Shown piece after piece: positions 183-19,654 of a DNA stretch of 32,000 nt. The stretch's first letter is position 1. Every line of letters begins with the position of its first letter. The notes below the pieces were generated by a model. That model worked only from the letters and a program-made list of their open reading frames with translations. It was not told the DNA's origin and did no database searches. The position numbers and the translations under genes were made by a program. The stretch comes from Candidatus Saccharimonadota bacterium (GTDB taxonomy: Bacteria; Pseudomonadota; Alphaproteobacteria; CAJXXZ01; 1604HC), in NCBI RefSeq assembly GCF_008189405.1, contig NZ_CP043316.1, forward strand, positions 270,001 to 302,000. Reading direction: 5' to 3'.

Positions 183-581
183 TTATATTCCTTGATTATT
201 GTTTGTGATGTGTATATTTTCAGTATTTAATAGTGTGGTTTGAGTAATTTCTTTTGCAAAAAAATATCCATATCTCTTATTAATTGGTTGTAATGAAGAA
301 TTGATTTTAATATATTTATTATTCCATACACCTATATCAAATATTTCTACATTAATATTGCAAACAATGCCAAAAAAATTATGTATTAACCCTTTTTGCT
401 TTTGGTGTAAGTTTAATGGTATTACGTGACACCATATTGGTTCTTTTTTATGCTCTGATTGTACATATTTTCCATGTAAAAACATTTCACTTATCTTGAT
501 TGGCTCAATTATTTCTCTTAACCGTGGCACATTACCTTGCATAATATAGCTCCATTTTTTGGAGCGATTATTAGTATTCAT
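183..581 (-). CDS. Phage/GTA-like head-tail adaptor (head-tail joining) protein, putative
   Basis: 132-aa ORF directly after the connector gene, sharing nt 581 with it. Size and position match the adaptor gene (RcGTA g7 position). The true start may be M14 (nt 542), giving MQGNVPRLREIIEPIKI. Similarity by eye is weak. Confidence 0.5.
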   Translation of the reverse strand: MNTNNRSKKWSYIMQGNVPRLREIIEPIKISEMFLHGKYVQSEHKKEPIWCHVIPLNLHQKQKGLIHNFFGIVCNINVEIFDIGVWNNKYIKINSSLQPINKRYGYFFAKEITQTTLLNTENIHITNNNQGI

Positions 582-1111
582 TAAAATTTATTACTCATGC
601 TTTTATATGAATTTAACAATACACTATTATATTTGATTTGATCTTCAATTACAGTTGTGCCACTATATATTACATCAAATTGCTGGAATATATATTGCAA
701 TATAGATTGAGGTAATGTTTCTTTTGTAAAACCTGCATCATATGTAATTCTAATTTTTTTATTTAGAAACCTTTTATCTAATATGATAGTTCGATAATCA
801 GTGTGTATTATTTGATCAAAAAATTTAGTCGCTCTGAAATTACTGCTATTACTATTGCATGTTTCAACAGAAATAATGTTTGTGATGGGAGATTTTGGCA
901 AATAAACTTTGATTTGTTTATTAATATAACACCATGTTTTTTGCACAATTGACCTATCCGTATATGTTTCAGCTTGACTAATTGCTATTCTTAAGATTTT
1001 CTCAATATATTCATCATTCTGTTGTGGAGGAATATTGAAATGCTTTCTAATCAAATCTAAATCTACAGGTAATTCAGAGCTTTCTTTCTGTAATTGTAAA
1101 GAGTAAGACAT
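581..1111 (-). CDS. Phage gp6-like head-tail connector protein
   Basis: 176 aa. N-terminal LPVDLDLIRKHFNI..NDEYIEKILRIAISQAETYTDRSIVQKTW and C-terminal ITYDAGFTKETLPQSILQYIFQQ fit the gp6-like connector pattern. Lies directly after the capsid gene. Confidence 0.7.
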   Translation of the reverse strand: MSYSLQLQKESSELPVDLDLIRKHFNIPPQQNDEYIEKILRIAISQAETYTDRSIVQKTWCYINKQIKVYLPKSPITNIISVETCNSNSSNFRATKFFDQIIHTDYRTIILDKRFLNKKIRITYDAGFTKETLPQSILQYIFQQFDVIYSGTTVIEDQIKYNSVLLNSYKSMSNKF

Positions 1112-1122
1112 TTAATTTACTC

Positions 1123-2250
1123 TTATTCTTTTCCAGATTCTTTTGAATCTATAAACCCTACAAATGCATCAGGTCTAATTACTTTAGATCCAATATGTTT
1201 TCTAACATAATTTTGAATTAATGGTTTCCTGCTGTATTTATCATGTAATGCAAACAAATGCTCATGCTCTGCAATTGCATAACCGCTGTTTAGGTTACAG
1301 AAAATCAGTTTGCACTCTTTTCCTTCTAATTCTGGCATAAAATGAATTGGGTAATTCAAGAAAGAATGATGATTAGAGTCTATCCTAATAAGTGGCCTTC
1401 CAGCATTATCATTGAGTTTTAGAAATTCATTGTACATACTTCTAGTCATTAACCACTTTGCATTATCATGCAATTCTTCTGGAAGCTTACTGACCATTTG
1501 CATTGCTGCTTCATATCCAAATTTACCTCTCACAATGTATTTGTCATCTGATGGAATAATACTATCAATTTTATTTTCCACACCATCTACAAATAATTGC
1601 CTTTCTTTTTTAGAAATATCATTTGCAACTTTTGCGATTACAAATTCATTAAAATTCAATGGTCTTGGTTGGCACATCATATCTTGTGTGATATTTGCAC
1701 ATGCTTCGATTGCATGCATTTCAATGAGGTGTTTTTGAAATGATACAGTAGTTGAGTTTTCATTATCATATTCATGGTCAATGCTTTGTTCCTGAACGTT
1801 AAATGAATCCATAAACATTAACTCAAATGAATTGCCTTTAGATACTTTATAAGTTGATGAAAATGCTCTTACTGGAGATAAGTAGCTAGTTTGCTCTAAT
1901 AAGTATTGGTTTAGATTTGGTATGCATACATACCCTCCCATATCCTCTTGATTTGCACTTTTAGTTTCTGTAGATTTTCCTGTGCGTACATAATCTCCAA
2001 ATTGATTTACTACATTTGAATTATTATTCCCCCATGTGCTTGGGTGTGTTTCATTTATAGATTTTATCTCTAGATTAACGTGCTTTTTCATATTATTTTT
2101 CAATTCTGATAGTTCTTCCTTGATTTTGTGTTGATTGTCTTTGATTTGCTCTTCTGTTTTTGCTGAATTGTTTTTATATTCATGAAAAGATTTCCCTAAA
2201 ACATTCAAAGCATCTTGAAAGTTCTGATCGTTTGTATTGATTGTGTTCAT
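1123..2250 (-). CDS. HK97-family phage major capsid protein
   Basis: 375 aa. Charged coiled-coil N-terminal delta-like region (EEQIKDNQHKIKEELSELKNNMKK) followed by a globular domain. Located directly after the prohead protease, as in HK97/GTA head modules. Confidence 0.85.
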   Translation of the reverse strand: MNTINTNDQNFQDALNVLGKSFHEYKNNSAKTEEQIKDNQHKIKEELSELKNNMKKHVNLEIKSINETHPSTWGNNNSNVVNQFGDYVRTGKSTETKSANQEDMGGYVCIPNLNQYLLEQTSYLSPVRAFSSTYKVSKGNSFELMFMDSFNVQEQSIDHEYDNENSTTVSFQKHLIEMHAIEACANITQDMMCQPRPLNFNEFVIAKVANDISKKERQLFVDGVENKIDSIIPSDDKYIVRGKFGYEAAMQMVSKLPEELHDNAKWLMTRSMYNEFLKLNDNAGRPLIRIDSNHHSFLNYPIHFMPELEGKECKLIFCNLNSGYAIAEHEHLFALHDKYSRKPLIQNYVRKHIGSKVIRPDAFVGFIDSKESGKE

Positions 2251-2304
2251 TTTTTTTCCTTTTTTCTTTTAAACAATAAACTTAATGTAAAATTGCAATA
2301 TTAT

Positions 2305-2772
2305 TTATTTAATATATGCTTTTGGATTTGCAGGACATTTTACAATAGATATTTCATGCAAATCTATTTGAAAGATTGTCCTTATATGTGCCTCTCTTTT
2401 ATATATTATAGGTATAAAACCTATTGAAAGACCATATATTATTTTTGATTTGAGCATTTCCCAAACTTTTTGTCCCATATATAGATTTCTAAATATCTTA
2501 CCTTGTACATAAAGCCCAAATTCATCTTCTTCAATTTTAAGCCATTTCCCTAATGGCATACTTAAATCATGTTGAAAAAGCATATGTATATTATCTATAT
2601 TAGTTTTCAGTGAATATTGAAAACTTTTTTTGTGAATGATATCTCCATGCAAATCTGAATTTCCAAATACACTTGCATATCCTTCGAATATGCCATCACT
2701 ATTAATGCTTTTGATTTCTAAATTTGCTGGTATATTGCAACTATTTTGATTGCTTTTTATCATCATCATCAT
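2305..2772 (-). CDS. HK97-family prohead (maturation) protease
   Basis: Motifs FEGYASVFGNSDLHGDII, GLSIGF and LHEISIVKCPANPKA are typical of HK97 prohead proteases. The ORF is open from 2841, but the M24 start (2772) shortens the overlap with the upstream ORF, which ends at 2741. Confidence 0.85.
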   Translation of the reverse strand: MMMMIKSNQNSCNIPANLEIKSINSDGIFEGYASVFGNSDLHGDIIHKKSFQYSLKTNIDNIHMLFQHDLSMPLGKWLKIEEDEFGLYVQGKIFRNLYMGQKVWEMLKSKIIYGLSIGFIPIIYKREAHIRTIFQIDLHEISIVKCPANPKAYIK

Positions 2773-3172
2773 TACTATAGGCCATAAACGCTGCATACGC
2801 CCATTGCTTACTACTGTCTGAATAGTAGAGGTGTTGTCCACTAGGAATAAGAATTATATCGTTATTATTATATTTAGATTCATTAAATTCATCTTTGTTT
2901 TCAATGAAATGAAGATTTAATATGCTGTTTCTATCATATATTTGATCTAATAGAATTTTTGCTTTTATTGCTGCTCCTTGACTTATTTCTATAAAACCAG
3001 ATTTCAATTTATATGTCCAATCTTTTGATTGAATGTGATGTATTAACTCTGCTCTATTTGATGTGTTTTCTAAATTATTAAGCATTTCTTCTATATTTAG
3101 CCAATTTTCATCTAGTTGATTAATTGTTAATGGACCTTTATTTCTTTCGTAAGTGTTTAATTTTATGTTCAT
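2741..3172 (-). CDS. Hypothetical protein between portal and protease (RcGTA g3.5 position)
   Basis: 143-aa ORF filling the portal-protease gap and co-oriented with both. No family recognised. Acidic C-terminus NDDDDKKQSK. Confidence 0.5.
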   Translation of the reverse strand: MNIKLNTYERNKGPLTINQLDENWLNIEEMLNNLENTSNRAELIHHIQSKDWTYKLKSGFIEISQGAAIKAKILLDQIYDRNSILNLHFIENKDEFNESKYNNNDIILIPSGQHLYYSDSSKQWAYAAFMAYSNDDDDKKQSK

Positions 3173-3180
3173 ATTTTTCC

Positions 3181-4260
3181 TTATTTTTTATATCCACATA
3201 GTTGTCGTTTTTCATGCTCTGATAAGAATGAAAGACTATCTATGTGTTTTTTGTAATCTTCTGTTTTTGCAAATAATGCTGGAATATTGGAAAAATCATA
3301 TTCTAATTTCAGATTATCTTCTTGTACTAACCAGCTTTGCAATTGATTTAGAATCATGTTCGCAAGTGGTAAGATTGTATCCTCCCAAAAATGCAACCTT
3401 GCTTCTTTATAGTGATTAAATGAAGAATCTTGTATTCCTAACATTACTGGAGGCACTCCAAATGCTAAAGCTATTTCTTTTGCAGAATTGAGTTTGCCTT
3501 GATGGAAATCTATATCTTTGGGTGAAATACTCATTTCTTTCCATTTTGCATTGCCTTCTAATAATATAACCTTCCCAGCTTTATCTGATCCAGTATAATT
3601 AGAGTTAAGTTGATCTTTTAGTATTTGCCTTTGCGCTTCTGTCAATTGCTCATCGAAGATAAGAGCTCCTGAGATTCTTCCACCATTATCTAATATAGAT
3701 TTATTATATTTTGTGATTGTATCATACAGTGATGCTGATTTCTTAATCGTTTCAATTGGACTCATACCTTCCCATGGTGAGTATGGATTAGTTAATTTAA
3801 TATGTAATAACTGTTCATCATTTGCTCCATGTTCTTTATTGCCATATTTGTATTTATATGGATTGCCAGCAGAGTCACTAATTACTTTTAGTTCGTTAGA
3901 ATTCAATTTTATTACTTCATCATATGATTTAAACAAGTATATATTTCCATATAATAAAAGGTCTGTGATTACTGAATCTATTAATGAAAACCAATTATTA
4001 TGTTTATTAGGCTTTTTAATTAGCTTGTGTAGGTCATGATTGTGTAATATTATTCCATCTTCATTTTTCAAATTGCAAGGAATATTTGCTATATTTTTTG
4101 CTATTAGATTAATGCAACGATATATAATTACATTTTTTGAATATAAATCATCATATGATTCCTGATCAGAAAAAGTATAGTTAAAGTTTTCATTATTATA
4201 AACCATTACTTTTTGCTTATCTGGTTTGAATTTTTTATATAAATTTTGCATAAAACTCAT
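3181..4260 (-). CDS. HK97-family phage portal protein
   Basis: 359 aa. YRCINLIAKNIANIP; GGRISGALIFDEQLTEAQRQILKDQLNSNYTGSDKAGKVILLEGNAKWKEMSISPKDIDF; EIALAFGVPPVMLG. This matches the conserved HK97/GTA portal core. Confidence 0.9.
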   Translation of the reverse strand: MSFMQNLYKKFKPDKQKVMVYNNENFNYTFSDQESYDDLYSKNVIIYRCINLIAKNIANIPCNLKNEDGIILHNHDLHKLIKKPNKHNNWFSLIDSVITDLLLYGNIYLFKSYDEVIKLNSNELKVISDSAGNPYKYKYGNKEHGANDEQLLHIKLTNPYSPWEGMSPIETIKKSASLYDTITKYNKSILDNGGRISGALIFDEQLTEAQRQILKDQLNSNYTGSDKAGKVILLEGNAKWKEMSISPKDIDFHQGKLNSAKEIALAFGVPPVMLGIQDSSFNHYKEARLHFWEDTILPLANMILNQLQSWLVQEDNLKLEYDFSNIPALFAKTEDYKKHIDSLSFLSEHEKRQLCGYKK

Positions 4261-8307: not shown

Positions 8308-8970
8308 ATGTTTAAACTTAGTCAAGATGGAACAAAAATAGCAAAAATCATTGCAATAGGATTGGTTTTAAGCTTTGTGTTAGGGAGTTTTATTGCATTT
8401 TTAGCTATTGGATTGCTTGTTTTATTTAGAGATGAAAATCGAGTCATAACAAACCCAAGTGCATTGTTATCACCTTGTGATGGTATTATTCTATCTATAG
8501 ATAATGATGTTGATTTTACATTATCAGATCAGTATCAAAATATTAAATGGAATAAAATTACAATTTTGAATGGTATATTAGATATACATGTGAGCAGAAT
8601 GCCTATAAAAGGCAAAATAGAAGATATAATATATTCTCCAGGTGAGTCTCGTGATAAGTATATATATAAGCAAAATGAGAAAATTTCATGGGTTATTGCA
8701 GGTGATATAAAATGCATAATTTCTCATTCAGTTGATACAGTTTTCCATTTTGTTTCTTGTAAGGTAAAGCGCAATGATATATTAAATATTGGGTCTACCT
8801 ACGCTAATAATGTGATTGGAGCTACTGTTGAGGTATATGTTCCTCAAGATTTGGAAATTTGTGTTTCTGAAGGACAGAAAATGATTGCAAGTGAAACTCC
8901 TTTAATTAAAAAATTAAAAAAATCAATCGAAGAAAATATAGAAGAAAGAAAAGAGAGTAAATTAATATGA
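8308..8970 (+). CDS. Phosphatidylserine decarboxylase-family paralog (short form) lacking the self-cleavage serine
   Basis: LFRDENRVI, LSPCDG, DIHVSRMPIKGKIEDIIY, NEK and IGSTY align with the downstream psd copy. The (F/I)G-S site is IGA (GGA GCT at 8818-8823), and the QIAG..ARRI segment is not conserved. Confidence 0.7.
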   Translation: MFKLSQDGTKIAKIIAIGLVLSFVLGSFIAFLAIGLLVLFRDENRVITNPSALLSPCDGIILSIDNDVDFTLSDQYQNIKWNKITILNGILDIHVSRMPIKGKIEDIIYSPGESRDKYIYKQNEKISWVIAGDIKCIISHSVDTVFHFVSCKVKRNDILNIGSTYANNVIGATVEVYVPQDLEICVSEGQKMIASETPLIKKLKKSIEENIEERKESKLI

Positions 8971-9620
8971 TAAAGAGAGTTTTTATGGATAAAGTAAGGT
9001 CTGATGGATATAATACTATTATTATATGCGCTTTGTCATCAATAGCATTTTTTTATTATAGCTATTATCTAGGGTTATTTGGGTTATTTTTAACAGCATT
9101 TTGCATATGGTTTTTTAGGGATCCAGATAGGGTGATTCCAGATCAGAGTGAGATTGTGTTGAGTCCAGCTGATGGAATAGTTGTGGATATTGAAGAAGAA
9201 GTTGAGTCTCCAGATTTTCCTGATAAAAAATGGACAAGAATTGGTGTGTTTTTGAGGCTTTCCGATGTGCATGTAAATAGATTTCCTATTGGTGGTGAAA
9301 TAATGGATATGAAATATGAAAAAGGAAAATTTGGATTTGCGTGGGGTAAGAAAACTCATATGAAAAATGAGAGATTAGCTATATTTATTAAAGGGTTCAT
9401 TGATTGTATTGTTGTGCAAATTGCTGGTTTTATAGCTAGGAGGATTGTTATAGATGTTACAGAGCATGATGAAGCTAAAATAGGGCAAACATATGGTATG
9501 ATAAAATTTGGTAGTAGAATGGATACATATTTCCCATCTAATATGATTGTGCATGTGAAAAAACGCCAGACAGTTGTTGCTGGCGAAACAATTATAGCAA
9601 GTAAGAATGAGTTGAAGTAA
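8967..9620 (+). CDS. psd: Phosphatidylserine decarboxylase proenzyme (short alphaproteobacterial/Asd-like form)
   Basis: FFRDPDRVIP, LSPADG, DVHVNRFPIGGEI, KNERLAI, VQIAGFIARRIV, GMIKFGSRMDTYFP (G-S cleavage site at 9510-9515), VVAGETIIA. ATGA overlap with the upstream paralog. Confidence 0.88.
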   Translation: MIKRVFMDKVRSDGYNTIIICALSSIAFFYYSYYLGLFGLFLTAFCIWFFRDPDRVIPDQSEIVLSPADGIVVDIEEEVESPDFPDKKWTRIGVFLRLSDVHVNRFPIGGEIMDMKYEKGKFGFAWGKKTHMKNERLAIFIKGFIDCIVVQIAGFIARRIVIDVTEHDEAKIGQTYGMIKFGSRMDTYFPSNMIVHVKKRQTVVAGETIIASKNELK

Positions 9621-10423: not shown

Positions 10424-10570
10424 AAATTAAATATTTTTATTTACTTATATAAGTGTCATATGTTAGTTGTGTTTTGCATATTGAATTGAATGCTTATAAG
10501 CCTATAATAATTCTGATATAGAAATTGATTTTATTCTTTAGTTGCAAATTTAGATTTTAGGTAAGTGTTT

Positions 10571-13258
10571 TCATGAGAATTTGCTTGCTAATCTACGTAC
10601 TATATTTTGGTGATTATTCATATAGTTTTGTAATGCTATATCTCGAGATTGTTTGTTTTTTATATTTAATAATTTCTTCAAATTAAATTGGTCAATATCT
10701 AATTGATTGATCAGTTTTTGTAGACTATCTTGTTCTTGTTTTTTGATGGATAATTTGTTGATAATTTCCTCTAATGTGTTCTTATTAATTATTAATTGTG
10801 TGTTTTTTGTATTTAGTTCAATATGTAGATTTTGGTTTGTTTGGGTTAAATCATCTATTTTTTTGTTTAAATCATCTACTTTTTCTTGTTTTATGTTTCT
10901 TTTGCTATTAATAATTTTGTGGTGATTTGATATTTTAGAACCATTAAGGCCTATTTGCTGTTTTAAATTTTGAATTTTACCTTCATCTTGTTTTATTAAT
11001 TGATTTATTTTACGCATTTCTTCTGTGAGTTGTGAAATATCTTTCTTAATTTTACTTTTTTCTTTATTCCTCTCTTCTTTATTCTTTATTATTTCATCAA
11101 TCCATTTTTGAATTTGAATTTTGTATTCTGATTCCTTTTCATCTTTTTGTGGTAATGCTAATTGTATAATTACATTGTATATATAATTTTTATCATATGG
11201 AGAATAGCTTAAATCAATAGATTTAGATCCTGAAGAATTAGACCTGATAGATCCACTACGCTTTCTAGGTATTTGAGGTATTTCTTGAAAATCTGCATTG
11301 TTGCTATTCAAAGGATGTTCTGATATATATTGCGATTCTTTCTTTTGAGCAAGTATTGCTGCAGATTTTCTTGATCTAAGTGCAGCTTGTAATATAGTTG
11401 CAATTTTATTTTGCTCCTGATCTTTAGCTTGTTCATTTTCATTGTTTTGCTTATTTTTTTGTTCGCTCTTTATATTATCAAATTTTGTTTTCGCTTTATT
11501 CCTCCTAAATCTAGATTGAATTTTGGTTGCATAATTATCTTTTTGTTTCTTTTGAGCAGCTTTTATATAATCATGATGTATACCAACAACTTTATTATAT
11601 TGTTCAATGCAACATGATGTGTTATCTCCAGATACCTTATTAAATTGCTTGAGAAATTGATCTAAATTAGTATAAAGATATTCTATTATAATATCTATTT
11701 CCTTAACTGAAGATGCATGTGTAATCTGGTGCTCATACCCCTTCCCTAGCAATGTATAGTGTGCAAACAGAGCGCTTAACTCTTTCTCTAGTTTAGTGAT
11801 GATTTTTTTAACTTCATTTATGTAGTAATCATGCATTTTTATTACATTATTATATTCAATATCATACTTATTTAGATCAACAGTGGATATTTGAGATACT
11901 GTTTCAGAATGTTTTTTTACGCGATCTATAAACTGATTTTTATTTGTTTGTGCAAGTTTTAATAAATTGTTAGCCTCAAAAAGTGATAGGCTGTTATTTT
12001 GTAGTTGAGCACTATATTTACCTTCAAATTTCATATAATCATTTATCAGATTAAATATGAAATCATTAACATATGTAGGTCTATTCATAGTATTTGGAAC
12101 TTCAATTTGATTATTAGATGTTGACCTTATTTTTGCAACTTCTTTTCTAGATCTTTTTCCTCTAAATATAGCTTGGATTCTGGTTGCAGAGTAATCCATT
12201 TTTTGTTTTGCAGGCTGATCTATTGATTTGCCTTGTGGAGGATATGGTGAAGGTGATTTGTTTGATGGGTTATTGATGCGCTGTGAAGAAGGAGTTTTGC
12301 GTGGAGTTGATGGTATATAGTCTGGAGATATAGAAGGTGGTGTACTGTTCGAAGGTGCACTACTTGTAGATGATTGAGTATTTTGGTTTGAAGGTGGTAT
12401 AGGTGAATTTGATATATGACTATTATATGGTGAAGTATATGGTGAAGGTGGAGCAGATGGAATTGGTGCTACACTTCCAGCGTATATAGGATTAATATGC
12501 TTGCCTAGAGATGAGTGGCTTGATGTAGTATCAATATCACTTCTTGGAGAAGGTGGAGCAGATGGGGTTGGTGGCATGGTATGCGTATATATATCATTTC
12601 TTGGAGAAAGTGGAGCAGATGGAATTGTGCCATAAACATATGGAGGATTTGCTAACCCTTCTCTTCTTTTGCCATTTCTATTATTTATAACTGCTCTTCT
12701 TCTCATATATTTTGCTTTTTGTTTTATGCTTTTTGCTTTTCTACGTGCTTTTTGCTTCATAATTTTTGCTCTTCCACGCGTTTTATTATTAATATTATGA
12801 TTCATTTCAGCACTGGCATGCGTGTTTTGTTGTGTTTCTTGATATGTTGTAGTGGATTTGGCCGGGTTTGTGTGTGTTTGTATTGGTCTGCTAGTAAAAG
12901 AATGCTGTGAAGGATATATTGTGGGGCTATATGATGGCGCAGACTGTATATATGGAGTTGTAGAATGAAATATAATACTGTGTGATTTTGGTATTAACTT
13001 CACATTTTTAAAATCCACGTCACCCGATTGATTTTGTAGTGACTTATTATATAAGTATTCCTGTGATTTTTCTGGAGATTGTGAGGGCTTTGCTTGCTTG
13101 CTACTGATTTTTAATGCTTTGCTTTCTTGAATATTGGTTTGTTTTTTGATTAATTCAATAAGTGGTTTCCCTGATTTTATTTGTTTACCTACCTTAAAGC
13201 CAATGTACAATAAAGCGAATAGTGCTAAGGCTATAATGCTGCGTTTAATAAATTGCAT
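10571..13258 (-). CDS. Orphan 895-aa membrane-anchored protein with Pro/Ser-rich repeats, three IQ-like motifs and a C-terminal heptad-rich region (candidate host-directed effector)
   Basis: Long uninterrupted ORF in very AT-rich DNA. SD AAGGAG (13267-13272) lies 8 nt before the ATG. N-terminal hydrophobic anchor SIIALALFALLYIGF. See findings for motifs. Confidence 0.85.
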   Translation of the reverse strand: MQFIKRSIIALALFALLYIGFKVGKQIKSGKPLIELIKKQTNIQESKALKISSKQAKPSQSPEKSQEYLYNKSLQNQSGDVDFKNVKLIPKSHSIIFHSTTPYIQSAPSYSPTIYPSQHSFTSRPIQTHTNPAKSTTTYQETQQNTHASAEMNHNINNKTRGRAKIMKQKARRKAKSIKQKAKYMRRRAVINNRNGKRREGLANPPYVYGTIPSAPLSPRNDIYTHTMPPTPSAPPSPRSDIDTTSSHSSLGKHINPIYAGSVAPIPSAPPSPYTSPYNSHISNSPIPPSNQNTQSSTSSAPSNSTPPSISPDYIPSTPRKTPSSQRINNPSNKSPSPYPPQGKSIDQPAKQKMDYSATRIQAIFRGKRSRKEVAKIRSTSNNQIEVPNTMNRPTYVNDFIFNLINDYMKFEGKYSAQLQNNSLSLFEANNLLKLAQTNKNQFIDRVKKHSETVSQISTVDLNKYDIEYNNVIKMHDYYINEVKKIITKLEKELSALFAHYTLLGKGYEHQITHASSVKEIDIIIEYLYTNLDQFLKQFNKVSGDNTSCCIEQYNKVVGIHHDYIKAAQKKQKDNYATKIQSRFRRNKAKTKFDNIKSEQKNKQNNENEQAKDQEQNKIATILQAALRSRKSAAILAQKKESQYISEHPLNSNNADFQEIPQIPRKRSGSIRSNSSGSKSIDLSYSPYDKNYIYNVIIQLALPQKDEKESEYKIQIQKWIDEIIKNKEERNKEKSKIKKDISQLTEEMRKINQLIKQDEGKIQNLKQQIGLNGSKISNHHKIINSKRNIKQEKVDDLNKKIDDLTQTNQNLHIELNTKNTQLIINKNTLEEIINKLSIKKQEQDSLQKLINQLDIDQFNLKKLLNIKNKQSRDIALQNYMNNHQNIVRRLASKFS
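12441..12631 (-). repeat. In-frame coding repeats; the shared DNA core tggagcagatgg encodes PSAP
   Basis: Three copies of the core at 12449-12460, 12554-12565 and 12611-12622. The two upstream copies lie in 57-nt (19-aa) units: atatcacttcttggagaaggtggagcagatgg (from 12534) and atatcatttcttggagaaagtggagcagatgg (from 12591). Confidence 0.8.
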
Positions 13259-13403
13259 TGCTCAATCTCCTTTTGCTTTATTATACTATATATTCGCAAA
13301 CAAATCACTAATATTATAGAATTATCTAAATAATCTTGTAATATTGTATAATTATTGCATAGTATAGATATGCTATGTATGTTTTAGGAGCAAACAATAT
13401 ACT

Positions 13404-13419
13404 TTAAGCGAAAGCTTAA
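13404..13419 (-). terminator. Weak hairpin downstream of the 869-aa gene (possible terminator or processing site)
   Basis: On the minus strand, TTAAGC-TTTC-GCTTAA (6-bp stem) begins 9 nt after the TAA stop (13431-13429). No clear U-tract follows, so support is weak. Confidence 0.2.
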
Positions 13420-13428
13420 TGATTCAGA

Positions 13429-16038
13429 TTATTGTGTAACTTGTTTAGTTATTATTATAGAGGTACGAGTTGCATCAAATTCTTCTTTTGCATCTTCATA
13501 CTCTTCTGCTAGTTTGTTTATATCTGCATCTTCAGTATTAATATAGTTTGATACAGATGATAAAGATCTAATTTTAGCTTGCTTTACTACTACATTCGTA
13601 AGAATTTCTAGAGCATCTCTATCTACTACTAATTGATCAATTTTTATTTGAACAGCATTTTTTTGCTCTGTTATGGTTTTCTTTTCATTCTTTACAATAT
13701 ATTCATGAATATTACTATTCAGAAAATAATTTTGATAATGCCCATTAATCATATGCTCTAAGTTGATTTGTATGCTTGATGGGACCTGTTTAAATAATGC
13801 ATCAAAATTATTTTGTAAATTTATACCTATCTCTATTTTAACACCATCTGGAGCACTAATATCATTAGCCACATCTGAATATAGTTCCTTAGCATCTGCA
13901 AACATCTTTTCTAATTCACTTTTGTATAATAAAGCAGAAGAAGTAGTAGCAGAATCTAATAATTGCGTACTAGCATTTGCAGTCTTCATATGATTTACAC
14001 TCTCAGTTTCCAATGCCTTTAAACTATCTGTAATGCTCTTATAATTTGCTATTACTTTGTTAATCATATTTATATTTAATTGATCTATTGAACCATCTAT
14101 AACGCTTTTAAGATCACCAGTAGTATTAAATACGATCGATCTGATTGTATTTGATACACCATCAAAAGTTTTTTCACTTGACAGAGTATCTGAAAGAGCA
14201 GTAAATTCATCTTTAATAATATTTAAAATAGGATGATCCTCGCCTCCACCTGGTTCTTTTGTGCCTTCTATCTGCCATATAACATTTGTCATTTCATCGA
14301 TCTTGGCATGTAATGCATTGTTCACTATATATGCTTCTTTTAATAGTACAGTTTTTTTACTTTCAATGTATTTGTCAAAATGTGCAATTAGTTCTTTTTT
14401 CAATGTTTCAATGCCATTTGTATTAATATGAAATGCTCCTAGTACTGCTCCATCCTCATCATGACGCATATCTCCAGCTTGTTGAACTAATTCGTCAATT
14501 AATAGAGTGTTTTTGTAATAGAATCCAACTTTAGTTTCATCAATTCTTTCACTATTAGCCAATTCAAATGCTTTATTTAATTTGGCTAATCCTGAATTTT
14601 CTAGATTATCTTTTTTCATGAAACATTGTATTTCATCAGTTAGTGCAGTTAGTGCAGTTAGTTCTTGACTATTGAAACTTGAGTAATCTGCAAATAATTT
14701 ATTGTAGTATTCATTGGTATCTTGATCTTTTAATTTAACTAAATCATTGCTAAAGTCAATTGCACCTGCAATCATCATATTTTCATAATATTTAGCAGAT
14801 TCAACCATAGTTGTGTATAAATCTTTAAACATGGTGGATAAATCATCACTTGAAGGTAGATTATTGATCATATCCTTTATTGTATCTGCTTTGATTGCGT
14901 TAAATATTGTATCATCAGCAGTAATCTTAATTGCATCATATATTGCTTGCGCAGTTTGATATAGTTTGGGATCAGCTTTATCTATAAATGCATCTAATTC
15001 ATCTTTGAGAACACCAAATCCTTTGACACTATCTATATTCACTCTAATTAATCTAAGTGAATTGAATGCATCTACAGTATATTGGGCAAATTTATCTTTT
15101 AACCTTTTAACTTTTTCTTGTGGATTCAAATCTGAATTACTATCATTCAAATGCAAATCATCTAATTTTTTATATAAATTAGATGATGTATTCTCATGTA
15201 TTTCCAATATTTTTAATTCTTCAAGTAGGTACTCTAAATCTTTAATTTGATTTGCAATCATTTCATATTCTGCAATTTTCTCATATGATTCTACCAATTC
15301 AGTTGGTTTATATTCTAATAATTTAGCTAGATCATCATGTCCTTTTTGACCAAATTTTGCTTCCATAGCATTTTGCAATTTAAACATAGCTGCGTCTTTT
15401 TTAAATAATAATTCTCTCTGAGCTGTATTAGTAGCAATAGCATATTGATTATCAAACAAAGCATGCTTGCTTGTATCATTAATTAATAATTTGATCTTTG
15501 ATATATCACTATCATCACCATCATTAGACAGATCAGCAGATATAATAATAGCTACTAATGCACTTTCAGACAATTTGTTTACACCATTGTAATAATCAGA
15601 AATTAGCTTACGTGCAACTTTTTTTTCTGTAATGTTATTATTTGGATCATTTTTCACTGCTTCAAATACTGTAGCAATTCTATTATTATTTGTGTAATGA
15701 CATTTGCTATCTTTGATCAAATTAATTTGATCTGGGGTTAGTGGTAGGTGATTTGTATGATAGGAAAGTTGAATGGTATTTGGTACTAAATATGCATCGC
15801 TTCCATTATTTTCAATGTATACACTTCTTCCACCCTCATTAATCATAATAGCGCTAACTTCATTTGCATCTGAGTTTGCTAAGAATGCATTTTGTTTATC
15901 TGTATATTCTTTTTTAGATACATGTTTAAACATATCCACCTCTACTACATGTCGTAAAAATGCCATGTCAGATACTTGATCAGCATTAATGCTGCATGCC
16001 ATAGCTATTGATAATATGAATTTATTATTATATTTCAT
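13429..16038 (-). CDS. Orphan 869-aa secreted/periplasmic protein (Sec-type signal peptide; acidic; predicted helix-rich)
   Basis: Uninterrupted 2.6-kb ORF. SD GGAGGA (16042-16047) just upstream of the ATG. N-terminus MKYNNKFILSIAMACSINA/DQ looks like a cleavable signal peptide. No family recognised, no C-terminal beta-barrel-like ending, and no further hydrophobic segments. Confidence 0.8.
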   Translation of the reverse strand: MKYNNKFILSIAMACSINADQVSDMAFLRHVVEVDMFKHVSKKEYTDKQNAFLANSDANEVSAIMINEGGRSVYIENNGSDAYLVPNTIQLSYHTNHLPLTPDQINLIKDSKCHYTNNNRIATVFEAVKNDPNNNITEKKVARKLISDYYNGVNKLSESALVAIIISADLSNDGDDSDISKIKLLINDTSKHALFDNQYAIATNTAQRELLFKKDAAMFKLQNAMEAKFGQKGHDDLAKLLEYKPTELVESYEKIAEYEMIANQIKDLEYLLEELKILEIHENTSSNLYKKLDDLHLNDSNSDLNPQEKVKRLKDKFAQYTVDAFNSLRLIRVNIDSVKGFGVLKDELDAFIDKADPKLYQTAQAIYDAIKITADDTIFNAIKADTIKDMINNLPSSDDLSTMFKDLYTTMVESAKYYENMMIAGAIDFSNDLVKLKDQDTNEYYNKLFADYSSFNSQELTALTALTDEIQCFMKKDNLENSGLAKLNKAFELANSERIDETKVGFYYKNTLLIDELVQQAGDMRHDEDGAVLGAFHINTNGIETLKKELIAHFDKYIESKKTVLLKEAYIVNNALHAKIDEMTNVIWQIEGTKEPGGGEDHPILNIIKDEFTALSDTLSSEKTFDGVSNTIRSIVFNTTGDLKSVIDGSIDQLNINMINKVIANYKSITDSLKALETESVNHMKTANASTQLLDSATTSSALLYKSELEKMFADAKELYSDVANDISAPDGVKIEIGINLQNNFDALFKQVPSSIQINLEHMINGHYQNYFLNSNIHEYIVKNEKKTITEQKNAVQIKIDQLVVDRDALEILTNVVVKQAKIRSLSSVSNYINTEDADINKLAEEYEDAKEEFDATRTSIIITKQVTQ

Positions 16039-16253
16039 TCATCCTCCATTTTTTTTTCTATATTGCCATCGATATCTAAAAAAAATACTAAAAAGTGTTT
16101 AAAATAATTTTATATTTATATAAAATTGTGTAATTATTAATTTTATATCTATGTAAAACTATTAATAATATAGTGTAAATATGCAGATTTTTTTAATGAA
16201 TAAATCTTATTGATTATAGTGTGATATGGTTATTGGTTGTGATTTGTATTGTA

Positions 16254-17333
16254 CTAAACATTAAATTTAAAATTACAAATATCTCCATCTTGAACAATAT
16301 ATTTTTTACCTTCTTGTCTTATTTTGCCTTGAATTTTAGCTTCTTGTGATCCATTACATTCTATAAAATCTTCATAAGATATTACATCTGCGCTAATAAA
16401 CCCTCGCTCAAAATCTGTATGTATTACACCTGCAGCTTCTGGTGCAGTAGAATCTTTAGTTATTGTCCATCCTCTTGCTTCTTTTGGTCCAACTGTAAAA
16501 TATGTTTGCAAATTTAGCATCTTATACCCTGTTTTTAAAACGTAATTCAATCCATTTTCTTTTAAATTATACATTTCGTACATTTCTTGCTGTTCTTTTT
16601 CATCAAGATCTAAGAAGCTTTCTTCTAGCTTAGCAGACACAGGAATAATAATTTCATTTGGGTATGCAGCTTTTAAACTATCTAAATGATTATTACCATT
16701 TTGAACATCTTCTTCTGCTAGGTTGGCAATATAAAATTTAGGCAAAATAGTTATGACTCCCATTGTTTTCAGCCAATTTTTATCTTTATCTTCAAATTCT
16801 ACGCTAGATAAATAAATCCCTTTAGATAATAAGTCAATTGCTTTTTTTGCTAAACTCATTTCTTCTTTAGTACGCAAATTTCTATCTGCTTTTTTATTCA
16901 ACCATTTTTCAAGTAATTCAATATCAGCTAAAATCAGCTCTGTTTCTACTAATTCAATATCAGCTACTGGATCAATTTTGCCCTCTACATGTGTTATTTC
17001 TTTATCATCAAAACATCTTGCTACATGCATTATTAAGTCAACTTGCCTTATATGGCCTAAGAATTTATTACCTAACCCTTGCCCTTCACTTGCCCCTTTA
17101 ATTAGTCCAGCAATATCAATACAAGTCAGAGTTGGGAAAATGATTTTTTTAGAACCTTCCACTTTAGATAACATTTCTAATCTAGCATCAGATACTGCTA
17201 CATGCCCCTTATTTGGCTCTACAGTGCAAAAAGCATAATTCGAAGCTTCAGCAACAGCTTTCTTTAATAATACGTTAAATAAGGTCGATTTTCCTACATT
17301 AGGAAGACCTACACAACCACAAGCAAATCCCAT
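16254..17333 (-). CDS. ychF: Ribosome-binding ATPase YchF (Obg-like ATPase)
   Basis: GCVGLPNVGKSTLFNVL (G1), CTVEPNKGHV, DIAGLIKGASEGQGLGNKFL (G3), and the C-terminal TGS-like domain IHTDFERGFISADVISYEDF. Confidence 0.93.
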   Translation of the reverse strand: MGFACGCVGLPNVGKSTLFNVLLKKAVAEASNYAFCTVEPNKGHVAVSDARLEMLSKVEGSKKIIFPTLTCIDIAGLIKGASEGQGLGNKFLGHIRQVDLIMHVARCFDDKEITHVEGKIDPVADIELVETELILADIELLEKWLNKKADRNLRTKEEMSLAKKAIDLLSKGIYLSSVEFEDKDKNWLKTMGVITILPKFYIANLAEEDVQNGNNHLDSLKAAYPNEIIIPVSAKLEESFLDLDEKEQQEMYEMYNLKENGLNYVLKTGYKMLNLQTYFTVGPKEARGWTITKDSTAPEAAGVIHTDFERGFISADVISYEDFIECNGSQEAKIQGKIRQEGKKYIVQDGDICNFKFNV

Positions 17334-17543
17334 AACGCATTATAAATGCATTTGATGAAAAATAACCATAGATATAGATTGATGTAGTGATTTGATTATT
17401 ATTATATTAATAGAATAATAACTAGGATCATTTTATAAAAATAATATTAGGATCAATTGAATAACTATGACCAATTTACAAATAGTTGATTATAAAATCA
17501 TGATATATTAAAACGTAGTTTGAATTTTGAATTCAATTTATTA

Positions 17544-17855
17544 TTAAATAATAGTTTTGATCCAGTTTGATAAGTCAGTAGAGCTCATAGAACCTGAATG
17601 CCTTGCTTCTTCTTCACCTTTTTTCAGAATAATTAAAGTTGGGATACTTCTGATAGCATAATTCTGTGCAATTGAAGACATATCATCTATATTGATTTTA
17701 AAAAAAGGAATGTTAAAGTCATTAGAAACTTCCTCAAAAGTAGGCATAAAATTTAAACAAGGTTGGCACCATTCAGCCCAAAAATCCACAATGCACTCTG
17801 ACGCTTCTGTTAATTTATTTATATTTTCAGCATTTATCGCTATTACTTTATGCAT
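17544..17855 (-). CDS. Thioredoxin with a non-canonical WCQPC active site
   Basis: DFWAEWCQPC...IRSIPTLIILKKGEE fits the thioredoxin fold. A perfect SD AGGAGG (17862-17867) lies 6 nt before the second ATG (17855), so I prefer this start over 17873. Confidence 0.85.
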   Translation of the reverse strand: MHKVIAINAENINKLTEASECIVDFWAEWCQPCLNFMPTFEEVSNDFNIPFFKINIDDMSSIAQNYAIRSIPTLIILKKGEEEARHSGSMSSTDLSNWIKTII

Positions 17856-18007
17856 AAAATACCTCCTGTGCATGTATCATACGATTTTTTTTGTAAAAAT
17901 TACATATTGCAGAAAGTTGCATAAAATTTTATCGTTAGTTTATCTAATTGTGTTAATGGATTGCAACATTAATAATCTTACAAGAAAATTTAATTAATAA
18001 AGAAAGT

Positions 18008-18036
18008 TTGATTTAATTTAGAAAATGTGTTAAATA
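18008..18036 (+). promoter_or_regulatory. Candidate sigma-70-type promoter for the rpmI operon
   Basis: TTGATT (18008-18013), 17-nt spacer, TAAATA (18031-18036) preceded by TGT (extended -10-like). Sits about 25 nt upstream of the rpmI ATG. AT-rich background makes chance matches common. Confidence 0.25.
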
Positions 18037-18060
18037 TTGACAATAGAACCGGAGATTCAT

Positions 18061-18303
18061 ATGAAATTAAAAACGAAAAAGGCGCTAATAAAAAGACTTA
18101 ATGTATCTGCAACTAGACTAAAAAGAGGAAATGCTTTTAAAAGGCATAACTTAAGAAGAAGAACAACAAATATGAAAAGGCAGGCTACAGATTTAGTTGA
18201 TGTACATCCTTCTCATGAGAGGATGATCAAGAAATTGGCTCCATACATTAAGATTAAAGCAAAAAGAGTTAGATCTATAGAATCAGCAGAAGTGAAGGGG
18301 TAA
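18061..18303 (+). CDS. rpmI: 50S ribosomal protein L35
   Basis: MKLKTKKALIKRLNVSATRLKRGNAFKRHNLRRRTTNMKRQ matches L35. GGAG (18051-18054) lies 6 nt before the ATG at 18061. The track start at 18037 is a TTG upstream. Confidence 0.88.
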   Translation: MKLKTKKALIKRLNVSATRLKRGNAFKRHNLRRRTTNMKRQATDLVDVHPSHERMIKKLAPYIKIKAKRVRSIESAEVKG

Positions 18304-18306
18304 AAA

Positions 18307-18669
18307 ATGGTAAGAATAAAAAGAGGAACTAATAAAAAGAGAAGACATAAGAAGATCTTAGAGGCTGCTAAGGGATATCAAGGTAGATCATCTACATGTT
18401 ATCGTGTTGCAAAATCTAGAGTTGAAAAAGGGTGGCAATACGCTTATAGAGACAGAAGAAACAAAAAGCGTGTTTATAGATCTTTATGGATTCAAAGAAT
18501 TAATGCTGCTGTAAAATCTTTTGGTATTAATTACAGTAAGTTTATGAATCATTTGAAAACTGCTGGTATAGAGCTAAATAGAAAAGTATTATCTGAATTA
18601 GCAATTATGAATCCTGATCATTTTGCAGATTTAGTGAAAAAGGTTGTTCCTGCACAAAATGCTTCATGA
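18307..18669 (+). CDS. rplT: 50S ribosomal protein L20
   Basis: [68 protein letters not shown] is canonical L20. Confidence 0.95.
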
Positions 18670-19654
18670 AAATGAAATTAATAGTATAAAACAAAATATT
18701 GAAGAAGAGATTTCATCATGTAAAGACATGAAAGGTCTCATTTTAGTAAAATCTAAGTTTATTGGAAAAGAAGGTATTTTAAATGCTTACTTAAAAAAAT
18801 ATTTAAAAAATTCAGAATTAAGCAATGAAAACAAAAAAAGCATTGGGTTTGAAATCAATCAACTAAAGGATTTTTTTAACCTTTTTTACAGAAAAAAAAT
18901 CAGTGCTTTTCAAAACAAACAAATACCGACAGATCAAATTGATTATTCTATTCCTGTATCTAGTGCTATAGGTAATTTGCACCCACTATCATTATCTAAA
19001 GAATATATTCACAAAATTATGCAAGAGATGGGATTTATATATGAAGATGGCCCTTCTATAGAAAAAGAATATTATAATTTTGATGCTTTGAATATTTCTA
19101 AAAACCACCCTGCTCGTAATGAGAAAGATACATTTTTTATAAATGATGATGTATTGCGTACTCATACTACTGCAGTGCAAATAAGAGCTTTAGAATCTCA
19201 AAAATATGTAGATGAATTTAGAATTTATTCTATTGGAGATGTATATAGAAGAGATGATGATTCAACTCATTTGCCTATGTTTCACCAAATTGAAGGGTTT
19301 ATTATAGATAATTCTGCTTCTATTTCTACTTTAAAAGGTTTTTTGTTAGATTTCTTGAAGAAGTTCTTTGAAAAGGATGATGTTGAAATTAGGTTGCGTC
19401 CGGGATATTTCCCCTTTACTGAACCATCTGTTGAAGTTGATGTTAAGTTCGAAAATGGAAAATGGCTTGAAATACTTGGAGCTGGTATGATTAGAAAAAA
19501 TATTTTATCTAAATATGGATATAAAAAAGGATTTGCATTTGGAATTGGTTTGGAAAGAATTACAATGATTAAGTTTGGAATAACTAATATTCATGATTTA
19601 ACTGATAATCATTACCCATGGTTAAAACAATATGGAAATTCTACGGAGAATTAA
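18659..19654 (+). CDS. pheS: Phenylalanine--tRNA ligase alpha subunit
   Basis: [74 protein letters not shown] (class II motifs 1-3). ATG at 18659; an alternative TTG lies at 18644. Overlaps the end of rplT. Confidence 0.92.

Follow-up and report, generated by a model that had tools for sequence, protein, structure and literature searches.

The subject of this analysis is a gene on the minus strand (10571..13258) of a 32,000-nucleotide (nt) window, by which we mean the whole stretch of DNA analysed (positions 270,001 to 302,000 of contig NZ_CP043316.1). Its product, an orphan protein of 895 amino acids (aa), contains IQ motifs, the calmodulin-docking motif of eukaryotes, and this observation is confirmed. 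The exact sequence is on record as QEK38536.1/WP_148971652.1 of Candidatus Cytomitobacter primus, with the annotation 'hypothetical protein', and the gene is carried on chromosome OX638200.1 (622,378 bp) of assembly GCA_951805245.1, for which the genome note of Diplonema japonicum (PMC13598402) gives a description. C. primus belongs to the Holosporaceae and is an endosymbiont of this marine protist, in whose cytoplasm it lies free, with no host membrane around it (PMC5845003). Docking of host calmodulin by the 895-aa protein is plausible, and the protein is a credible candidate for host contact. We propose, tentatively and as something short of probable, that it is a species-specific, fast-evolving, envelope-associated or exported protein with acquired eukaryote-type IQ helices that would dock host calmodulin. 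This proposal is supported by matches to the Pfam IQ profile, shuffled-sequence statistics, relatives that are exclusively multi-IQ proteins, the cytosolic location of the symbiont, the Sec, type II secretion/type IV pilus (T2SS/T4P) and type VI secretion (T6SS) machinery of its genome, signal peptides on proteins encoded at the same chromosomal position in related genomes, a transcript, and the precedent of SidJ from Legionella. An earlier note on this DNA had read the protein as a host-directed one that docks calmodulin or mimics a cytoskeletal protein, and that interpretation as a whole is partly supported.

IQ motifs in the 895-aa protein

The gene, its ribosome-binding site and the three IQ segments are arranged as follows.

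10571..13258, minus strand: coding sequence (CDS) of the 895-aa orphan protein (open reading frame list, ATG start; exact-sequence database match)
13267..13272, minus strand: Shine-Dalgarno sequence AAGGAG, 8 nt upstream of the ATG
12131..12190, minus strand: IQ1, aa 357-376, SATRIQAIFRGKRSRKEVAK, complete canonical IQ motif inside a disordered region (Pfam IQ, own profile model)
11480..11530, minus strand: IQ2, aa 577-593, ATKIQSRFRRNKAKTKF, IQ motif without the Gly (Pfam IQ just under cut-off, own profile model)
11351..11401, minus strand: IQ3, aa 620-636, ATILQAALRSRKSAAIL, degenerate IQ-like copy (nucleotide match to IQ1 and IQ2)

The open reading frame (ORF) and its strong Shine-Dalgarno site, both claimed in the earlier note, were found as listed. 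The ORF is intact over 2.7 kb in DNA of 27-30% GC, where stop codons are frequent. Promoter-like hexamers at 13342-13313 were no commoner than expected by chance in this AT-rich DNA, and scans for promoters and terminators came out at or below shuffle expectation. Residues 475-895 are 100% identical to a 421-aa ORF of a D. japonicum Trinity transcript (P0002; EukProt EP01064, TRINITY_DN15011_c0_g2_i1.p1), which is evidence that the gene is transcribed, at least over its 3' half. Although it derives from the symbiont, the fragment is listed among the host's proteins in that eukaryotic proteome set and is also a cluster representative, so that the full-length bacterial protein is hidden from word-indexed searches.

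Three segments of the form AT(R/K/I)(I/L)Q occur in the protein, at exactly the coordinates that the earlier note had given (12137-12187, 11480-11530 and 11351-11401). Only IQ1 satisfies [FILV]Qxxx[RK]Gxxx[RK]xx[FILVWY], the consensus in full; IQ1 and IQ2 match the Gly-less form, and IQ3 retains only the [IL]QxxxR part. This agrees with the earlier description of IQ1 as canonical and of IQ2 as fitting a pattern without the Gly, and the nucleotide match to the other two agrees with that of IQ3 as degenerate. When the Pfam IQ profile (PF00612; gathering cut-off 20.3 bits) was run against the whole protein, a check that the earlier note had called for, a significant match was obtained (21.3 bits, E 2.1e-4, above the cut-off). 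As separate 40-aa peptides, IQ1 scored 21.2 bits (E 2.2e-4), also above the cut-off, and IQ2 19.5 bits (E 7.4e-4), just below it. An independent IQ hidden Markov model (HMM), built from 88 distinct full-consensus motifs, gave 25.5 bits for IQ1, 8.7 for IQ2 and -1.3 for IQ3, scores that were reached by 0/5000, 1/5000 and 225/5000 composition-preserving shuffles respectively. For IQ1 there is some circularity in this model, whose source proteins had been retrieved by way of IQ1; the Pfam result is independent. The HMM was also applied to a background of 143 ORFs, together 42,096 aa, taken from this window and from five loci of related symbionts, and its three highest scores fell on the three motifs of the 895-aa protein. 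Profile and shuffle statistics support the sequences of IQ1 and IQ2 as true eukaryote-type IQ motifs; the earlier claim of three such motifs stands for these two and not for IQ3, which is without profile support.

The three segments also resemble one another at the nucleotide level. In-register identity was 51/75 between IQ1 and IQ2 and 43/75 for IQ1-IQ3 and for IQ2-IQ3, against a background of 24 +/- 4.5, and the best in-frame matches of each segment in the whole CDS were the other two (next best 36-39). These reciprocal best matches argue that IQ3 derives, in degenerate form, from the module that gave IQ1 and IQ2 and does not resemble them by chance, and that the module has been duplicated and retained.

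Relatives and origin of the IQ module

An exhaustive phmmer search of 1.84 billion representative proteins (E <= 0.001) returned 12 proteins, namely the transcript fragment described above and 11 others, all 11 of which match only aa ~325-399. Ten of these 11 were scanned with Pfam and every one was a multi-IQ protein (Pfam IQ E 1e-30 to 1e-96). The multi-IQ relatives come from ENA metagenome contigs, the one contig checked having 54.6% GC. IQ1 (SATRIQAIFRGKRSRKEVAKI) agrees at 16/21 positions with the repeat unit of these proteins (such as SATKIQATFRGSKARKEVAKI), P0006 among them. The metagenomic proteins P0006 (L017 406-3081) and P0007-P0015 carry the long repeat IDIDLxDPxV..SATKIQAxFRGxKARxEVxKxK, and the P0006 gene, on a contig of 54.6% GC, overlaps its upstream ORF by 4 nt.

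The whole protein had no match among PDB sequences. The best matches of the IQ1 peptide there were the IQ motifs of Chlamydomonas RSP23 (E 4.3e-10), CFAP91 and Sp17, the identity running beyond the consensus positions (RKEVA..RS) in proteins of solved axoneme structures; the IQ2-IQ3 peptide gave a marginal match to Sp17 only. To judge from these alignments IQ1 is of a eukaryotic, flagellar/GAP-43-like subtype. It aligns best (SATRIQAIFRGKRSRKEVAKIRS), also outside the consensus, with the ATKIQAxFRG subtype found in GAP-43/neurogranin, Sp17, Chlamydomonas RSP23 and CFAP91, although the likeness is limited to the motif, as the 895-aa protein has no RIIa, NDK or other domain and is of bacterial origin. 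Outside the IQ1 region no relative, bacterial or eukaryotic, was found in the 1.84 billion representatives, the D. japonicum EukProt sequences included. Neither the whole protein nor the IQ1 peptide gave a match in word-indexed searches, a result that appears to be limited by the fragment representative and by low-complexity words crowding the candidates, and a GTDB genome scan with the protein returned no relative. No paper in the searched literature names the accessions of this protein, PF00612 in endosymbionts, or IQ motifs in Holosporales.

Transfer of the whole gene from the host was rejected, as no D. japonicum or other eukaryotic relative was found beyond the IQ1 region. Another possibility is that IQ1, or the IQ module as a whole, is a captured flagellar/GAP-43-type fragment that was later duplicated and ameliorated. 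Such a eukaryote-to-bacterium transfer concerns origin and would be compatible with calmodulin docking; it would fit the 16/21 identity to the metagenomic repeat unit, the matches to RSP23, CFAP91 and Sp17 beyond the consensus, and the failure of these searches to find bacterial relatives. We nevertheless consider it quite improbable: the similarity is confined to ~25-50 residues and no other part of the protein has a eukaryotic or host relative, the codon and base composition is symbiont-like, and near-consensus short motifs can arise by convergence.

The pssA-ychF slot in related genomes

Synteny was recovered via PssA homologs, which led to five related complete genomes; a genome scan with YchF gave only ~45%-identical Mycoplasma-like loci that were useless for this purpose. 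The order YidC...psd-psd-pssA-[slot]-ychF-trx-L35-L20-pheST-lepA is kept in 4/5 of these genomes, and the 895-aa gene lies in the slot, whose contents are as follows (PssA identities in brackets; MAG, metagenome-assembled genome).

10424-16253, C. primus window: slot with the 895-aa and 869-aa orphans
10733-10956, ERZ25333217 (L011; PssA 74%): slot empty, 225 bp
10785-16571, ERZ25333236 (L012; PssA 69%): slot with 1056-aa and 817-aa orphans
10865-19519, MAG CP060235.1 (L016; PssA 56%): slot with 1752-aa and 1101-aa orphans
10924-12792, Nesciobacter abundans (L015; PssA 53%): slot with one 622-aa orphan
C. indipagum (L013; PssA 64%): synteny broken after pssA
13429..16038, minus strand, C. primus window: 869-aa acidic orphan, directly upstream of the 895-aa gene and sharing its strand; signal peptide that looks cleavable (…ACSINA/DQ) (ORF list)

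Each slot holds 0, 1 or 2 large genes, and the orphans are mutually unrelated by BLASTP. The slot proteins of L012, L016 and N. abundans have no similarity to the C. primus pair by BLASTP (best pairwise E 0.1-0.2) or tblastn, no IQ motif and no Pfam domain, and no remnants were seen with tblastn. The 869-aa orphan belongs to no Pfam or NCBIfam family and has no similarity to its positional counterparts, and its AlphaFold2 (AF2) model, with a predicted local distance difference test (pLDDT) score of 33, is unusable. All of the other slot proteins start with signal-peptide-like N-termini bearing small-x-small sites. The hydrophobic segment of the 895-aa protein is longer and has no site of this kind. 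By these comparisons the pssA-ychF interval is a hypervariable slot, or fast-turnover island, of predicted exported, coiled-coil-rich orphans. A conserved Cytomitobacter/Nesciobacter gene family was rejected, there being no ortholog at the syntenic slot, by tblastn or in the 1.84 billion representatives; the orphan status that the earlier note had assigned to the protein was upheld by the same results.

One explanation for these data is that the gene is a transient orphan in a hypervariable island, expressed and with little or no specific function, whose repeats and IQ-like segments came from duplication and from AT/Lys-Arg-Gln-Ile drift. The protein has no homolog anywhere that was searched, the content of the slot is wholly different between related genomes and missing from one, several internal duplications are seen at the DNA level, and about half of the residues are predicted by AF2 to be disordered. 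This explanation seems to us quite unlikely, however, as it would have to account for an intact 2.7-kb ORF in DNA of low GC content with a Shine-Dalgarno site and a transcript, in a genome that is gene-dense and has very few pseudogenes (10.1101/719211). Nor do composition-matched shuffles yield such IQ scores, and no comparable score is seen among background ORFs from these genomes.

Three other features of the window were noted.

25742-27514, minus strand: second orphan, 590 aa, N-terminus MQRLSFLILILCINNLDA/VD, between PBP1A and the EamA transporter
183-4260, minus strand: gene transfer agent (GTA)-like cluster (portal, S78 protease, major capsid, small ORFs), beside yidC
8308-9620, plus strand: two tandem phosphatidylserine decarboxylase (Psd) paralogues with a 4-nt overlap

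The 590-aa orphan has no Pfam or NCBIfam family, and nothing larger than a 35-aa ORF stands in its place in the closest relative (L011), which suggests another variable slot for exported proteins. The GTA-like cluster next to yidC is kept in all relatives and agrees with reported gene transfer agents in protist endosymbionts (PMC9254644). The psd tandem pair is kept in 5/5 related genomes, the first paralogue being far more divergent than the second (best NCBIfam score 90 vs 211 bits). PheT of N. abundans (L014/L015 16834-19752) has 972 aa vs 698-729 aa in C. primus and L011, an unexplained extension of ~250 aa. The window further encodes PssA, YchF, PheST, LepA and a TLC ATP/ADP translocase, together with the YidC, Psd, PBP1A, EamA and GTA-like genes already named, and has a GC content of 23-36%; gene content and GC fit the picture of a reduced-genome endosymbiont. 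That the genome is that of an obligately intracellular bacterium, as the earlier note had supposed, is borne out by these genes, by the identity of the source and by the published biology of the endosymbiont.

Architecture, topology and host contact

Apart from the IQ segments, the following parts of the 895-aa protein were distinguished.

13184..13252, minus strand: single N-terminal hydrophobic helix, aa 3-25 (hydropathy; AF2 helix aa 2-28)
aa 40-149: disordered region (AF2 model)
12665..12811, minus strand: very basic helix, aa 150-198, with an 11-aa tandem duplication (AF2, best-confidence part)
12191..12658, minus strand: disordered Pro/Ser-rich region, aa 201-356, with three PSAP(P/L)SP units (composition; pLDDT <50)
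11618..12082, minus strand: helical region without relatives, aa 393-547 (AF2 helices aa 393-543, pLDDT ~50-70)
11327..11617, minus strand: one long predicted helix, aa 548-644 (97 residues), which carries IQ2 and IQ3 (AF2)
11159..11326, minus strand: disordered Ser-rich linker, aa 645-700 (AF2 pLDDT <50 at aa 640-717; modelled as disordered at aa 645-689)
10574..11158, minus strand: C-terminal heptad-periodic helical (coiled-coil-like) region, aa 701-895 (periodicity; AF2 helices aa 707-894)

The single-sequence AF2 model is usable for secondary structure only. Both hydropathy and the model agree with the single N-terminal anchor that the earlier note had described, and the next-best hydrophobic 19-mer has a mean hydropathy of only 0.89; the N-terminal helix is predicted to be an uncleaved signal-anchor, probably, and the charges of its flanks do not settle its orientation. 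The basic helix is the best-scored part of the model (pLDDT 74-82), with a net charge of +18 over aa 149-200 and an 11-aa duplication (RGRAKIMKQKA / RRKAKSIKQKA) that corresponds to a 33-nt tandem repeat at 12713-12778; it has no Pfam match and could bind membrane, nucleic acid or calmodulin. In the Pro/Ser-rich region, with 34 Pro and 32 Ser among 156 aa, the repeats to which the earlier note had pointed are duplications at the DNA level (43-nt direct repeats at 12423-12627, up to 86% identical). PSAP occurs in it at aa 213, 232 and 267, inside repeat units PSAP(P/L)SP(R/Y), and conforms to the ESCRT-I/TSG101 late-domain-like pattern P[ST]AP; these may be further eukaryote-type short linear motifs, or simply a matter of repeat composition.

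The disordered stretch of the model (aa 199-392) takes in IQ1, which for this reason resembles a short linear motif carried on a disordered tether, the arrangement of GAP-43/neurogranin; GAP-43 is a membrane-tethered, intrinsically disordered protein with an IQ motif. The region that follows (aa 393-547) had no match among the 1.84 billion representatives, PDB sequences or PDB folds. IQ2 and IQ3 look, in the model, like sites on a rigid helix (pLDDT 62-77 over aa 550-630). The linker between this helix and the coiled coil contains RKRSGS (aa 665-670, 11249-11266), a basophilic-kinase-type RxRxxS consensus. The heptad-rich C-terminal region of the earlier note was recovered as aa 701-895, where the mean hydrophobic enrichment at a/d positions was 0.49 vs 0.26 in shuffles, a value that none of the 500 shuffles reached.

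Several points weigh against the reading in which this protein docks host calmodulin, and the ambiguous topology is its main weakness. The N-terminal segment (aa 3-25) has no signal-peptidase (small-x-small) site, the anchor carries more positive charge on its C-terminal than on its N-terminal side, an asymmetry that would favour a bulk within the bacterial cytoplasm, and no outer-membrane, beta-barrel or secretion module was found (Pfam, NCBIfam, AF2 model); most of the protein could therefore lie in the periplasm or even in the bacterial cytoplasm. IQ1 is not predicted to be helical by itself (AF2 coil, pLDDT <50), IQ3 as a separate 40-aa peptide gave no Pfam IQ match, and the spacing of IQ2 and IQ3 is 43 residues, vs the 23-25 typical of light-chain arrays. 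The AF2 model, made without an alignment, is a poor one (overall pLDDT 50.6). No ortholog was found in free-living or any other bacteria (phmmer, GTDB scan, related loci, tblastn), and because the slot is empty in the closest sequenced relative the gene is dispensable in the clade and not a core symbiosis factor. The evidence is at the level of the motif only, in a gene that is dispensable and confined to one species.

The ambiguous topology, together with the missing outer-membrane module, keeps alive a different explanation, in which the protein is a purely bacterial envelope or cell-internal scaffold, anchored in the inner membrane and made of disordered and coiled-coil parts in the style of TolA, TonB, ZipA or TipN, whose basic amphipathic IQ-like helices bind bacterial partners, anionic lipids or nucleic acid and do not come into contact with host calmodulin. 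A single N-terminal anchor without a cleavage site, flank charges compatible with a cytoplasmic bulk and the lack of a secretion module are what such a scaffold would have; a Pro-rich spacer followed by long helices is the usual layout of periplasm-spanning or division scaffolds, the helix at aa 150-198 is strongly basic, and the other slot proteins are likewise coiled-coil-rich orphans without eukaryote-like domains. However, no similarity to TolA, TonB, ZipA or any envelope family was found with Pfam or NCBIfam, an essential scaffold would be conserved and yet the slot is empty in the nearest relative, and two independent IQ-profile matches with shuffle counts of 0 and 1/5000 and identity to eukaryotic IQ motifs beyond the consensus are hard to call incidental. 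We regard this explanation as rather unlikely, though it deserves serious weight. Membership of the TolA/TonB/ZipA group itself was rejected, with no such match at thresholds as loose as E 10 for Pfam and E 1 for NCBIfam, the generic layout of N-terminal anchor, Pro-rich spacer and helices alone being shared.

Calmodulin docking, the reading we prefer, would take place in a setting that is well described. C. primus lies naked in the host cytosol, which holds calmodulin (PMC5845003), and contacts the host mitochondrion (PMC13462478). Its genome is highly reduced, without glycolysis, the tricarboxylic acid (TCA) cycle or respiration, and keeps Sec, a reduced T2SS/T4P hybrid and a modified T6SS, and many of its hypothetical proteins are predicted to be secreted (bioRxiv 10.1101/719211). 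We propose that the N-terminal hydrophobic segment may target the protein to the Sec pathway and the envelope, and that a part exposed to the host cytosol would bind calmodulin of the host, or an EF-hand light chain resembling it, at IQ1 and, less tightly, at IQ2 and IQ3. The protein would then serve as a scaffold or sink on the surface of the bacterium, without enzymatic activity and oligomerised through its coiled coil. The motifs and their significance, the eukaryotic subtype, the orphan status of the protein, its transcription, the cytosolic life of the bacterium and the export machinery in its genome are shown; we infer export across the outer membrane, host exposure, calmodulin binding and a downstream effect. 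A more elaborate form of this proposal, which we think unlikely, is a non-enzymatic, multi-IQ 'calmodulin tether' on the symbiont envelope. Here a disordered stalk would display an IQ helix of the GAP-43/radial-spoke type, and together with the lever-like helix that bears two IQs and the coiled coil it would draw in or sequester calmodulin or EF-hand light chains of the host. Such a tether might act at the interface of the bacterium with the cytosol and the mitochondrion and couple the symbiont to host Ca2+ signalling or the cytoskeleton.

The precedent cited in the earlier note, Legionella pneumophila SidJ, is valid, as the IQ helix of SidJ binds host calmodulin (PMC6858067). The 895-aa protein shares with SidJ/SdjA, which are calmodulin-activated glutamylase effectors, the presence of a canonical eukaryote-type IQ helix in a protein of an intracellular bacterium. 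SidJ, however, is a Dot/Icm substrate that combines a catalytic domain of kinase fold with a single IQ at its C-terminus, whereas the 895-aa protein has its membrane anchor at the N-terminus, carries the IQ in three copies and is disordered or coiled-coil over long stretches, with no catalytic domain (Pfam, NCBIfam) and no sequence similarity to SidJ. It would work most like the IQ docking of SidJ, yet it was rejected as a SidJ/SdjA-type effector because it is without a kinase-like (glutamylase) catalytic domain, the AF2 model being all-helical or disordered.

There is also some likeness to the neck and tail of unconventional myosins, in that IQ2 and IQ3 lie on one 97-residue predicted helix that is followed by a linker and a heptad-periodic region. 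Membership was rejected, as there is no motor domain or myosin head match and the IQ spacing is wrong (43 and not 23-25); profile support, moreover, is confined to IQ2 of the two, and there is no fold match. Foldseek against PDB returned generic spectrin-like helical bundles only (best E 0.19), and the earlier suggestion that the protein mimics a cytoskeletal protein, which would rest on the all-helical, low-confidence model without a significant fold match, was not supported. Listeria ActA and Rickettsia RickA/Sca2 are comparable as proteins of cytosolic bacteria with proline-rich repeats, a membrane anchor and eukaryote-like short motifs. These proteins target actin regulators and have known display routes (a Gram-positive C-terminal anchor or an autotransporter barrel), whereas no display route is evident for the 895-aa protein (Pfam, AF2). 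It was rejected as an autotransporter or surface-displayed Gram-negative protein, its C-terminus being a heptad-periodic helix with no match to a barrel family. Closer in descent are the 89-kDa and 63-kDa periplasmic proteins of Holospora obtusa, which the Holosporales review PMC11909080 cites as released into the host; they too are Sec-exported orphans of Holosporaceae that reach host compartments, although no sequence relationship to them was detected and the infectious form to which they belong is not known in Cytomitobacter.

The finding is a case of eukaryote-motif mimicry by an intracellular bacterium, a kind already known. Cytomitobacter and Nesciobacter have lost their energy metabolism, sit against the host mitochondrion and cannot be cured from their hosts (10.1101/719211; PMC11909080; PMC13462478), and between 22% and 50% of the genes in these symbionts are unannotated. 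In such symbionts a statistically solid eukaryotic calmodulin-docking motif provides a concrete handle on host contact. Should the protein prove purely periplasmic or cytoplasmic, it would be a cautionary example of motif-level mimicry without function. Docking by this protein would carry the exploitation of calmodulin by bacteria beyond the activation of toxins and effectors (SidJ, CopC), to a protein of scaffold type in the symbiosis with a protist. The calmodulin tether, if real, would be the first case described in a bacterial symbiont of a scaffold that docks calmodulin, in contrast to an enzyme activated by it, and the first candidate host-contact protein for the symbionts of diplonemids.

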